DNA of 24,712 nt from a virus. Its lineage: Duplodnaviria > Heunggongvirae > Uroviricota > Caudoviricetes. Shown here one piece after another: positions 19,636-22,734 of this stretch (positions are counted from its first letter, which is position 1; each line of letters opens with the position of its first letter). A program made the translations under genes and the position numbers. The DNA is taken from positions 1 to 24,712 of IMG/VR virus record IMGVR_UViG_2778261459_000007, one strand, 5' to 3'. The notes under the pieces are model-generated. The model did no database searches. It was given only the letters and a program-made list of their open reading frames with translations, and was not told where the DNA came from.

Positions 19636-20154
19636 TCACTTTGGCAGTCCGGGGATCGATATTTGCGCCTGCTGCTCAAGCCTTTCGATTCTTGCTATGA
19701 GTTGCGGTTTTTTGATCCTGCCCCAGCGGTTCAGCAAGCGTCCTGACATACTGGCAACATCCTTTTCCTTCATGAACTCCAGCATTAACTCGTTGTGCTC
19801 TCTTTGGTATGAGTGAGCCATCTCCATCAGCCTGTCACGCATCCAATTAAATGCTTTGATAAACGCCTCTTTGATGGCGGCAGCTTTTTTGCCGGTAAAC
19901 GACATGATGATGTACATCGCGCCGTCTTTGGAAATTTCATATTCAACATACTGATTACCCTTGTGTTCATAGGTAACCCGCGAAAAGTTGCTGGTTAGAA
20001 ATTCATCCGAACAGTCTAGCTTTTCGATTTTCTGAATGATGTGGTGATGCTGCTTGTCGAAGTAAGCTGCTACCTTGCGGGAGGTTGTGATCACGCGATC
20101 ACCAGAAACAACCACCATGTCCCGGAAATCGAGATTAGCCAATTGATGATTCAT
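19636..20154 (-). CDS. rha: Rha-family phage regulatory protein
   Basis: 172-aa ORF. N-terminal VVVSGDRVITTSRKVAAYFDKQHHHIIQKIEKL fits the Phage_pRha domain signature. Located between the lysis cassette and terminase, where P22-like phages carry a rha-type gene. Confidence 0.7.
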   Translation of the reverse strand: MNHQLANLDFRDMVVVSGDRVITTSRKVAAYFDKQHHHIIQKIEKLDCSDEFLTSNFSRVTYEHKGNQYVEYEISKDGAMYIIMSFTGKKAAAIKEAFIKAFNWMRDRLMEMAHSYQREHNELMLEFMKEKDVASMSGRLLNRWGRIKKPQLIARIERLEQQAQISIPGLPK

Positions 20155-20302: not shown

Positions 20303-20326
20303 AAAAAAGCCCCGCAAATGCGAGGC
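20303..20326 (-). terminator. Intrinsic terminator between Rz and rha
   Basis: Minus-strand RNA GCCUCGC-AUUU-GCGGGGC (7-bp stem with one G-U pair) followed by UUUUUU. Confidence 0.6.
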
Positions 20327-20500
20327 TAAATCCTGGTATTTGTAATGACTGGCTATTATCTCAACGCAGCCCCTTACTGCGCGCCAGATGCTCAATATCA
20401 AGCATCAGCAATGAGATGTTTAATCTGGATTCACTCCAGAAGTGATCACCACCCTGTCTACAGAGCCAGATGTGAAGGATGATGAGTAAAATTATCTCTA

Positions 20501-20938
20501 TCATCGAAGGCATTGCGTCCTGATGTATTCCTGCAGGTAGTTAACCTGCGCGGTTATCTTGTCGATTCCACTTCGGAGACGGTAATAATTGAGTTCAGCA
20601 TCTGCTGTAAGTCTTGGGCTTTCTCCATCGCCCATGCTGCTGGCTCCGGTAGTTGACTTTGCACAGGTGGCGGCGACTTGCAGGCGCTTACGCCCAGCAG
20701 AAACATCAGCACGGAGACTTTCGATAGTCGCGTTAGCATCAGCAAGCTCCTTTGTGTATCTGGCGTCGAGTTCTGCTACATCACGTTGACGCTTCTGCAT
20801 GTCAGCGATGATGGATGTGGCTTTATCGCGCTGTTCTTTATAGGTAATGGCGTTATCACGGTAATGATTAACAGCCCATGACAGACAGACGATGATGCAG
20901 ATAACCAGAGCGGAGATAATCGCGGTGACTCTGCTCAT
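20501..20938 (-). CDS. Rz: i-spanin Rz (inner-membrane spanin subunit)
   Basis: 145-aa ORF. First ~34 residues [34 protein letters not shown] match lambda Rz as recalled; the rest diverges but stays coiled-coil-like. Start overlaps the endolysin stop. Confidence 0.9.
20554..20745 (-). CDS. Rz1: o-spanin Rz1 (outer-membrane lipoprotein), embedded in the +1 frame of Rz
   Basis: 63-aa ORF wholly inside Rz. Signal peptide with lipobox (LLGVSAC) and a Pro-rich mature region ([16 protein letters not shown]), typical of embedded Rz1. Exact start (M1 or M3) uncertain. Confidence 0.8.
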
Positions 20939-21411
20939 ACCTCAATCTCTCTGACCGTTCCGCCAGCCTCTTTGAATTTTGCAATCAGGCTGTCAGCCTT
21001 ATGCTCGAACTGACCATAACCAGCGCCCGGCAGTGAAGCCCAGATATTGCTGCAACGGTCGATAGCCTGACGAATATCACCGCGATCAATCATCGGCAAA
21101 GCGCCACGCTCCTTAATCTGCTGCAATGCCACAGCGTCCTGGCTTTTGGGAGAGAAGTCTTTCAGGCCAAGCTGCTTACGGTAGGCATCCCACCAACGGG
21201 AAAGAAGCTGGTAACGTCCGGCGGCTGTTGATTTGAGTTTTGGGTTTAGCGTGACAAGTTTGCGAGGGTGATCGGAGTAATCAGTGAATAGTTCTCCCCC
21301 TACAATGACGTCATAACCATGATTTCTGGTTTTCTGTCGTCCGTTATCAGTTCCCTCTGACCACGCCAGCATATCGAGGAACGCCTTACGTTGATTATTG
21401 ATTTCCACCAT
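20935..21411 (-). CDS. R: Endolysin R (lytic transglycosylase), lambda-type
   Basis: 158-aa [52 protein letters not shown]… is essentially lambda R as recalled, including the catalytic Glu in the WSEGT context. Confidence 0.95.
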
Positions 21412-21718
21412 CTTCTACTCCGGCTTTTTTAGCAGCGAAGCGTTTGATAAGCGAACCAATCGAGTCAGTACCGATGTAGCCGATGAACACGCTCGTTATA
21501 TAAGCGAGATTGCTACTTAGTCCGGCGAAGTCGAGAAGGTCACGAATGAACCAGGCGATAATGGCGCACATCGTTGCGTCGATTACTGTTTTTGTAAACG
21601 CACCGCCATTATATCTGCCGCGAAGGTACGCCATTGCAAACGCAAGGATTGCCCCGATGCCTTGTTCCTTTGCCGCGAGAATGGCGGCTAACAGGTCATG
21701 TTTTTCTGGCATCTTCAT
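21395..21718 (-). CDS. S: Holin/antiholin S (S107/S105 dual-start), lambda-type class I holin
   Basis: 107-aa [46 protein letters not shown]…, essentially lambda S. Met1-Lys2-Met3 dual start is present: antiholin S107 from 21718, holin S105 from 21712. Confidence 0.95.
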
Positions 21719-21724
21719 GTCTTA

Positions 21725-21738
21725 CCCCCAATAAGGGG
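21725..21738 (-). promoter_or_regulatory. sdi RNA stem-loop upstream of S (controls the S107/S105 start ratio)
   Basis: Minus-strand CCCCUUAUUGGGGG hairpin immediately 5' of the S start codons, as in lambda, where it occludes the SD for Met1. Confidence 0.75.
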
Positions 21739-22154
21739 ATTTGCTCTATTTAATTAGGAATAAGGTCGATTACTGATAGAACAAATCCAGGCTACTGTGT
21801 TTAGTAATCAGATTTGTTCGTGACCGATATGCACGGGCAAAACGGCAGGAGGTTGTTAGCGCAACCTCATGCCGCCCGCTTTCACGAAGATCATGTGTAG
21901 AAGGCCGCAGCATAACTATCACTGATGAATTCAGGACATCCAGTGGCTACGGCTCAGTTTGGATTGTGGCGACCGGTGCTGATCTCCGGTTTGCTGCAAC
22001 TGCCTACAGCTGGCTACGTGGCCATACCGAATCCAGCGAAAGATTCTTGCCCTTACACATCAGCCTGTGCATTCACCACAACGATAAGAGCACTGCGCGG
22101 CACCTTTCACCAATTCCGCGAGGTCTGCGGGTTCAATGCTCTTACCTGTTGTGC

Positions 22155-22200
22155 AAACAAAAAAAGCCACCGTTGCAACTTAAGAGTCACTAACGGCAGC
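22155..22200 (-). terminator. Late terminator tR' (the target Q-modified RNA polymerase reads through)
   Basis: Minus-strand RNA GCUGCCGUU - 17-nt loop - AACGGUGGC followed by UUUUUUUGUUUG. The sequence after the U-tract (GCACAACAGGTAAGAGCATTGA…) resembles the lambda sequence just downstream of tR' as I recall it. Confidence 0.55.
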
Positions 22201-22204
22201 TTAT

Positions 22205-22240
22205 GCGAATAGTGTTGCTCATTTTCTCAATGATGTCAAC
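22205..22240 (-). promoter_or_regulatory. Candidate late promoter pR' with Q-utilisation region
   Basis: Perfect -35 hexamer TTGACA (22240..22235) 6 nt after the Q stop codon. No strong -10 at 17 bp (AACACT is the best candidate). Placement between Q and tR' matches lambdoid late-promoter architecture. Confidence 0.35.
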
Positions 22241-22245
22241 ACGTT

Positions 22246-22734
22246 CTACGCTACATGTTTAATTTTCTCTACACGTTTCCGGTTTTTAAACGCACTATCC
22301 AGAACCGGGTAAATCATAAACAACGAGGCATTGAGGATTTCGTCAACTTCCCGACGACAGGTTGCGAGCGATGGTTTTTGAATGCGCCCGCCGCCCCGGC
22401 ATAACATCTTGCGAGGTCTTGCGACGCGATGATAGTAAGATGCAATGGCGTGCTTGGAAGAACCGTGGGCGTAGTAGCTGAGGAGGATGCCAAAGGCTTT
22501 CTTGTCAATGTACATGACGGAATCGACGACCTGAGAAATCAACATTCCATCATCATCATTGCACATTGGCCTTGTCATAACTCTTCCCGGCTCTACGCTC
22601 TCCATGAACTTCGCTATTACGCTGCTCATGCGCTTTTCCAGACGACCTGAATAAACCCATGCGCCCCACAGTTCAAGCCAGCCATTCAGCCACTCATGCT
22701 GTTCTTTGGTGAGGTTTAGTTCTCTTATGCCCAC
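22246..22734 (-). CDS. Q: Late-gene antitermination protein Q (non-lambda type; length and sequence suggest the phage 21 Q family)
   Basis: 162-aa ORF immediately downstream of the nin region and upstream of pR'/tR' and the lysis genes. Not lambda Q (207 aa). Cys-containing motif (CRGGGR…C) consistent with a Q-family zinc-binding element. Family assignment is from memory and position. Confidence 0.75.

Follow-up and report, generated by a model that had tools for sequence, protein, structure and literature searches.

The window analysed here is a 24,712-nt stretch of viral DNA (IMG/VR record IMGVR_UViG_2778261459_000007, positions 1 to 24,712) from a P22-like (Lederbergvirus-type) phage or prophage of E. 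coli. Its best overall relatives were CUS-3, vB_EcoP-720R6, phiv205-1, JEP4 and Sf101, each of which matched it in mosaic pieces. The lysis genes lie on the minus strand as a holin-endolysin-spanin cassette, in which S, R and Rz follow directly on one another with overlapping ends and Rz comes last. S (21395–21718) encodes a lambda-type holin/antiholin, which matched Pfam PF05106 (E = 2.4e-30) and shared 99.1% amino acid identity with lambda S and 100% with the Sf6 protein. R (20935–21411) encodes an endolysin of the lambda R (transglycosylase) type, 98.7% identical in amino acids to lambda R and 100% to HK620 R; as no Pfam match was found for it at E ≤ 0.01, it was named by its identity to lambda R. 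The R stop codon overlaps the Rz start codon (ATGA). Rz (20501–20938) encodes an inner-membrane spanin subunit of 145 aa, in which residues 32–143 matched PF03245 (E = 9.1e-37; 126.5 bits, cut-off 25.4). Rz1 (minus strand, ATG at 20739 and stop at 20554) encodes an outer-membrane lipoprotein spanin subunit of 61 aa and matched PF06085, "Lipoprotein Rz1 precursor" (E = 4.8e-19; 68.3 bits, cut-off 27.9). It occupies nt 200–385 of the 438 nt of Rz, entirely inside that gene and in its +1 frame.

In lambda, Rz is a type II protein of the inner membrane and Rz1 a lipoprotein of the outer membrane; the two bind each other via their C-termini and, once the murein has been degraded, disrupt the outer membrane by fusing both membranes (PMC5295617, PMC6139136). 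By homology to lambda, the N-terminal helix of the window Rz would serve as the inner-membrane anchor and Rz1 would be an outer-membrane lipoprotein; the periplasmic ends of the two would bind each other, and after the action of S and R the complex would disrupt the outer membrane by fusion with the inner one. Residues 4–22 of Rz are hydrophobic (mean Kyte-Doolittle value 2.63) and the remainder is hydrophilic. This hydropathy, together with the identity of residues 1–34 to lambda Rz, predicts a single N-terminal transmembrane helix and type II topology. Lambda Rz consists of CC1 (residues 27–87), L2 (89–120) and CC2 (121–150) (PMC5295617), and alignment to these domains suggests that the periplasmic part of the window protein is likewise made of two coiled-coil helices and a linker. 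Cysteines are present at positions 14, 18, 92 and 143, the last two of which are the counterparts of lambda C99 and C152 in the alignment. Little or no variation was seen in the juxtamembrane motif NHYRDNA.TYK.QRDK, even among alleles that carry unrelated transmembrane domains, e.g., that of VT2-Sakai.

A previous reading of the letters alone (the sequence-only reading) had described the embedded Rz1 as differing from lambda in its mature sequence while keeping a lipobox, and both parts of this description were borne out. The predicted lipoprotein signal is LGVSAC, with the lipobox VSAC, Cys20 and Lys at position +2 (no Asp), and amino acid identity was 34.9% to lambda Rz1 and 93–95% to the Rz1 proteins of Sf6, CUS-3 and P22. 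Rz1 was intact in all 154 unique window-type genes, 150 of them matched by script and 4 recognised by an intact MLTRLLK... frame in the translations. The lipobox read VSAC in 139 of the 150 matched relatives, VNAC in 2 and VSGC in 2, the remaining 7 not being located by the search string. The mature window protein has the lipid-modified Cys as its only cysteine and contains 5 Pro with no PPPPP, a composition found likewise in 143 of the 150 relatives; the second periplasmic Cys (lambda C29) and the penta-proline by which the lambda Rz1 family is strictly defined are thus both absent. In lambda, a disulfide at either C29 of Rz1 or C152 of Rz suffices and one is required (PMC5295617). Because mature window Rz1 has no second Cys, this either-disulfide rule suggests that C143 of Rz would carry the required disulfide and would be the essential one in the window allele. 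The positions of the lambda salt-bridge pair, RzE150-Rz1R59 (PMC5295617), are altered in both partners, being occupied by T141 in Rz (with R140 adjoining) and V57 in Rz1 (with E58 adjoining); judged from sequence, these residues are compatible with a compensated interface. One codon of the overlap is peculiar to the window: positions 20650–20652 (Rz codon 96, Rz1 codon 30) read ACT, compared with ACG in Sf6, CUS-3 and P22, a change that is synonymous (Thr) in Rz and replaces Arg30 by Leu in Rz1 (QSQLPEP versus QSQRPEP). Among the 150 window-type relatives, residue 30 of Rz1 was R in 144 and unscored in 5, and L occurred in the window only.

The cassette was compared with lambda (NC_001416) by sliding nucleotide comparison and by a maximum chi-square breakpoint search with 2000 permutations. 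From 21860 down to approximately 20840 the window was 97–100% identical to lambda. A 24-nt indel was located at approximately 20822, beyond which identity stayed at 50–80% for approximately 150 nt, first 70–80% over approximately 80 nt and then 50–60%, before decaying to approximately 40%; past the Rz stop codon the sliding comparison detected no homology to lambda. The maximum chi-square breakpoint was placed at 20825, with 25 of 893 columns differing to its left (97.2% identity) and 163 of 352 to its right (53.7%). The chi-square value was 373, against a permutation maximum of 27.6 (n = 2000), and Fisher's test gave p = 4e-76. At the protein level, residues 1–34 of Rz are identical to those of lambda, A35E is the first change and 38 of residues 1–39 are shared, while identity from residue 40 to the end is 46%. 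The crossover interval with respect to lambda can be set at 20822–20845 on the minus strand, which includes the first informative differences (20835/20834, E35 versus A35), the breakpoint at 20825 and the indel at 20822. The proposal of the sequence-only reading that S, R and the first ~34 codons of Rz are lambda-like and end at an abrupt joint inside Rz is confirmed by these results, which put the joint some 35–39 codons into the gene; the alignment and the identity plot showed a sudden drop and not uniform divergence along Rz. Third codon positions were the same as in lambda at 106 of 108 codons in S, 141 of 159 in R and 35 of 39 in codons 1–39 of Rz. This conservation at third positions implies that the step reflects ancestry and not selection alone.

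The Rz joint is not a new one: it is a mosaic boundary already annotated as a GenBank feature in Sf6. In the Sf6 record (NC_005344), gene 63 contains at 37312–37359 a misc_feature named "bsq7; boundary sequence". As the Rz genes of Sf6 and the window align without gaps, its coordinates can be transferred exactly, to 20822–20869 on the minus strand of the window (Rz nt 70–117), and the right end of bsq7 coincides with the start of the indel relative to lambda. Rz nt 67–117 were 0.88–0.92 identical between allele groups, compared with 0.43–0.58 downstream, so that this stretch has the conservation expected of a boundary sequence. The Sf6 record with this annotation cites no later phage. "Boundary sequences" are short conserved stretches that have been proposed to mediate module exchange among lambdoid phages (Clark et al. 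2001; Susskind & Botstein 1978; both as cited in PMC3029335). Martinsohn et al. (2008) measured lambda Red recombination between diverged sequences and proposed homeologous recombination for blocks with "shoulders" (PMC2327257). The window resembles the boundary and homeologous models (PMC3029335, PMC2327257) in having a short conserved stretch at a module junction, and it resembles the case of Martinsohn et al. (PMC2327257) in having a block of approximately 97% identity followed by a 70–80% shoulder that decays to background. It differs from the boundary-sequence models in that its boundary lies inside a coding sequence and not between genes.

Comparison with HK620 showed a second edge. Identity between the window and HK620 was 93–100% from 21721, at the start of S, to 20822, 17–73% at 20821–20537 and again 93–100% from 20536 to approximately 20310. 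Three segments of Rz, all on the minus strand, can thus be distinguished. The left arm (20822–20938; Rz nt 1–117), which covers the transmembrane domain and the juxtamembrane stretch, is common to several Rz alleles. The middle segment (20537–20821; Rz codons ~40–134), with CC1, the linker, CC2 and all of Rz1, forms an allele-specific cassette in the HK620 comparison. The right arm (20501–20536) consists of the last 11 Rz codons and the stop codon; it is shared with the HK620-type allele (94.4% over 36 nt) and is continuous with homology downstream. It begins 17 nt past the Rz1 stop codon and encodes the C-terminal Cys of Rz. The suggestion that the Rz periplasmic domain and Rz1 had been replaced together stands in so far as both lie beyond the joint and the replacement is two-sided with respect to HK620, but it does not stand as an event specific to the window, and only one joint is visible against lambda. 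In that comparison the divergence continues into non-homologous DNA downstream.

The same arrangement is widespread. The 1.4-kb cassette at 20400–21800 was 97–98% identical along its entire length, free of any internal step, to those of Huey, HZ41, CUS-3, E212, Sf101, mEp213, mEp043, Sf6 and HK75, and 95.5% identical to those of epsilon34 and g341c. Rz to the right of the joint was at least 90% identical to sequences in approximately 170 phage records, including P22 gene 15 (95.3%) and some Stx2 phages, and IMG/VR held at least 80 loci with an Rz of at least 95% amino acid identity. Among 5426 complete E. coli genomes, 1729 had a full-length Rz of the window type and 4447 one of the lambda type; the median number of Rz-like places was 2 per genome. 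An assembly artefact was rejected, since the identical structure occurs in hundreds of independent records.

Sf6 genes 63 and 64 are a close counterpart: the S-R-Rz-Rz1 cassette is 97.0% identical in nucleotides, with 97.9% amino acid identity for Rz (gp63) and 93.4% for Rz1. The differences are three substitutions in Rz, the lipobox (VNAC in Sf6, VSAC in the window), two tRNA genes between Q and S that are absent from the window, and the genes downstream. Gene 15 and Rz1 of P22 represent the same periplasmic allele, with approximately 95% nucleotide identity to the right of the joint and amino acid identities of 90.3% (Rz) and 93.4% (Rz1); the Rz proteins of P22 and the window both have 145 aa and Cys at 14, 18, 92 and 143. 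However, the first ~45 nt of gene 15 are distinct (51 of 69 nt identical), its start codon is GTG, and the endolysin ahead of it, gp19, is unrelated, being 17.8% identical to the window R. Lambda has in common with the window the transmembrane domain, a coiled-coil periplasmic domain, two periplasmic Cys and Rz1 nested in the +1 frame, as well as the 34 identical N-terminal residues, whereas the periplasmic domain of the window (46% identical) is 8 residues shorter just past RDK39, mature Rz1 has 5 Pro (10 in lambda) and no equivalent of the second Cys (C29 in lambda), and the gene downstream is not bor.

These relationships agree with the published classification of spanins. Kongari et al. 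(2018) found that the 83 members of the lambda Rz family have o-spanin partners belonging mostly to the HK97 (32), lambda (28) and HK620 (14) families, with P22, Sf6, CUS-3, HK75, Sf101 and epsilon34 among the members of the HK97 o-spanin family (PMC6139136). The closest relatives of the window, CUS-3, Sf6, Sf101, P22, HK75, mEp213 and epsilon34, are all members of that family (PMC6139136), from which the window shows no substantive difference, so that it is one further member. The three main Rz alleles recovered from IMG/VR in the survey below match the HK97/lambda/HK620 split of that study (PMC6139136). Phage L compared with P22 has 64% identity in gene 15 and 93% in Rz1 (PMC8022706); phage L is another Rz mosaic with its boundary ahead of Rz1.

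To survey the locus more broadly, IMG/VR was searched with seven different Rz queries, which yielded 547 loci and 330 unique genes. Over Rz nt 1–66, identity between the three main allele groups was 0.94, within the range found inside the groups (0.94–0.96). Over nt 118–438 it was 0.43–0.58 between groups and 0.92–0.99 within them. Among the 330 unique genes, the common N-terminal type was joined to at least four periplasmic alleles, namely the window type (132 unique sequences), the HK620 type (70), the lambda type (42) and the SfI/4A7 type (14), plus rarer ones. Conversely, the window-type periplasmic allele was joined to five N-terminal types: the common one, that of P22 and three HK633-like ones, with the joint in the HK633-like genes at approximately nt 140. 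The N-terminus had been regarded as specifically that of lambda, and this view has to be given up, for it is common to at least four alleles at approximately 94% nucleotide identity and is found behind two unrelated endolysin types. Counts of T4-lysozyme-like and lambda R-like endolysins upstream were 22 and 55 for the window-type allele, 57 and 21 for the lambda type, and 45 and 27 for the HK620 type. In a separate count on genes with the same Rz N-terminus (loci L007 to L246, 400 nt upstream), the endolysin was lambda R-like in 103 genes, T4-lysozyme-like in 124 and of a third type in 10. Of 80 window-type loci, 26 lost homology to the window flanks precisely at the Rz start and 53 did so precisely at the Rz stop. 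Since homology sets in precisely with the Rz start codon, the junction of endolysin and Rz is a frequent module boundary in its own right.

Lambda is as much a recombinant at the Rz joint as the window is. The right part of lambda Rz is closest to an Stx-phage allele, distal Rz being 97–100% identical to VT2-Sakai, and bor is annotated downstream of Rz in both lambda and VT2-Sakai. The lambda-type allele was followed by the downstream sequence class of lambda (bor in the lambda record) in all 79 of 79 genes.

Natural chimeras broke at several places. Most of the breaks fell outside the overlap of Rz CC2 with mature Rz1, at the Rz start, approximately nt 45, 100–117, 140, 250 and approximately 402, and the Rz stop. 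The genes of 4A7 and SfI break at approximately Rz nt 250, in the region of the Rz1 signal peptide, and that of S149 breaks within CC1; lambda and VT2-Sakai differ sharply in the linker and share the distal part, and two IMG/VR loci (L414 and L425) are VT2-like with a different tail. Two others, L264 and L267, change relative to SfI from approximately Rz nt 373, that is, inside Rz1. Together with L270, these two IMG/VR loci represent rarer alleles or chimeras with an N-terminus and CC1 of the window type and with linker, CC2 and Rz1 of further types; the three diverge from one another once more in their last ~60 nt, which encode distal Rz CC2 and the Rz1 C-terminus. In every comparison the two most variable blocks of Rz were at nt ~265–284 and ~373–402. 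When adjacent Rz segments of the 330 unique genes were tested for excess combinations (reticulation), the excess was 0 at every boundary; an early-CC1 segment, B1 (the indel plus Rz nt 118–150), was uninformative in the large alignment, and this region was read from smaller alignments. With no excess found and no strict four-gamete result, the argument for recombination is one of discordant divergence and star-like combinations.

The idea that this is intragenic mosaicism constrained by a nested gene holds for its former half. Rz and Rz1 co-vary because Rz1 is nested and the two are the same DNA, and not through demonstrated co-adaptation; moreover, breakpoints inside the nested region do occur (L264 and L267). 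A constraint of the nested gene on breakpoints is plausible but is not endorsed here, as the independent events are too few for a statistical claim.

Taken together, the Rz step is most probably a mosaic boundary produced by homologous or homeologous recombination. The crossover would fall in the short Rz stretch of nt ~67–117, ending in [E/A]QRDK, which is conserved among divergent alleles; to its left lies the S-R-Rz(N) block common to lambda, Sf6 and HK620, and to its right the P22/Sf6/HK97-type periplasmic domain of Rz with the nested Rz1. Because Rz1 lies wholly inside the variable segment, any exchange here transfers the Rz periplasmic domain together with Rz1. Such chimeras would function if, as we infer, the transmembrane and juxtamembrane part can be uncoupled from the periplasmic domain, the one with which Rz1 pairs. 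We consider it highly probable that the Rz/Rz1 spanin locus of the window has an old, inherited recombination boundary in the configuration that is commonest in the sample.

Several alternative explanations were weighed. The contrast between the two parts of Rz might have arisen with no recombination, the N-terminal 39 codons being under far stronger purifying selection and the periplasmic domain having diverged fast in place. Some real constraint does act on the juxtamembrane stretch, as its near-invariance next to unrelated transmembrane domains (VT2-Sakai) indicates, but the conserved part on the left covers 893 nt and takes in both S and R, is conserved at third codon positions as well, and ends in an abrupt step. 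Divergence in place is also difficult to reconcile with one N-terminus being joined to at least four deep periplasmic alleles and one periplasmic allele to five N-termini, or with P22, which is 95% alike in the right part but not in the first ~45 nt or the endolysin; this explanation is extremely improbable. Equally little credence is given to the view that a lambda-like and a P22-like phage recombined recently and only in the lineage of this prophage. The whole 1.4-kb cassette is 97–98% identical, with no internal step, in phages of the same configuration; the configuration is represented by 132 unique IMG/VR sequences and in 1729 complete E. coli genomes, and its boundary is annotated in an Sf6 record that cites no later phage. 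These observations outweigh the features that would suggest such a cross, namely that S, R and the Rz N-terminus are very near lambda and the remainder is near P22 gene 15.

A further explanation concerns why the alleles persist. Discrete Rz/Rz1 cassettes might be kept by selection for allele diversity, for instance through cognate-only pairing as a protection against spanin poisoning among co-resident prophages, with the arms as the sites of exchange. Alleles do coexist at high frequency in E. coli (1729 window-type and 4447 lambda-type of 5426 genomes; median, 2 Rz-like places), two conserved arms are present and the lambda salt-bridge positions are changed on both partners. On the other hand, the pattern is accounted for just as well by neutral modular exchange; Cahill et al. 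saw no dominant-negative effect with those mutant alleles of lambda Rz or Rz1 that they tested (PMC5295617), and T4 spanins complement a lambda RzRz1 defect, so that function is not tied to a particular allele (PMC6139136). Selection of this kind is therefore regarded as unlikely, if somewhat less so than the two preceding explanations. The same low probability applies to its full form, in which the locus would be an exchangeable cassette with Rz nt 1–117 and the last ~36 nt plus downstream DNA as arms, a hypervariable core equal to the whole heterotypic interaction unit (Rz CC1, linker, CC2 and mature Rz1), alleles kept by cognate-only pairing, and the changes at the salt-bridge positions as part of a specificity code.

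The Rz joint, read as an old inherited boundary, is ancient and widespread; it is commonplace in the genomes of lambda-like phages and fits the spanin families already published. The window contributes a further example of the common Sf6/P22/HK97-type Rz/Rz1 allele, here following a lambda-type S-R block, and the survey illustrates that, as phages evolve by modules, a pair of nested genes is passed on together. Only if allele-specific pairing of Rz and Rz1 were shown to maintain discrete alleles would the locus reveal something new on spanin specificity.

Sequences on both sides of the cassette were also inspected. Downstream of Rz, an ORF of 50 aa on the minus strand (20361–20513) overlaps the Rz stop codon by 13 nt; its place is that of Sf6 gene 65, for which the annotation notes a similarity to Sp3 ECs0822, it gave no Pfam match, and its DNA is 90–100% identical to that downstream of Rz in HK620. 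Just past this small ORF, at 20308–20327 on the minus strand and in the orientation of the late operon, is a candidate terminator hairpin, AGCCTCGC-ATTT-GCGGGGCT followed by TTTTT, near which the block of high identity shared with HK620 ends. Terminator-like sites in the region numbered 3, with 2.6 expected by chance, and were thus not in excess. Between the lysis cassette and the DUF2560/terminase genes lies a gene for a Rha-family regulator (19636–20154, minus strand) with the domains PF09669 and ORF11CD3 (PF10549). P22 rha and the Rha gene of JEP4 are in the same position, and this region varies among the close relatives of the window. Upstream, between Q (22246–22734, PF06530) and S, no tRNA genes were found in 21719–22245, where Sf6 has tRNA-Asn and tRNA-Thr. 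Positions 21725–21860 are 100% identical to lambda 45045–45180, and identity to lambda drops upstream of approximately 21860–21890, inside the equivalent of the CUS-3 boundary feature "bsq3" (window 21719–21959).
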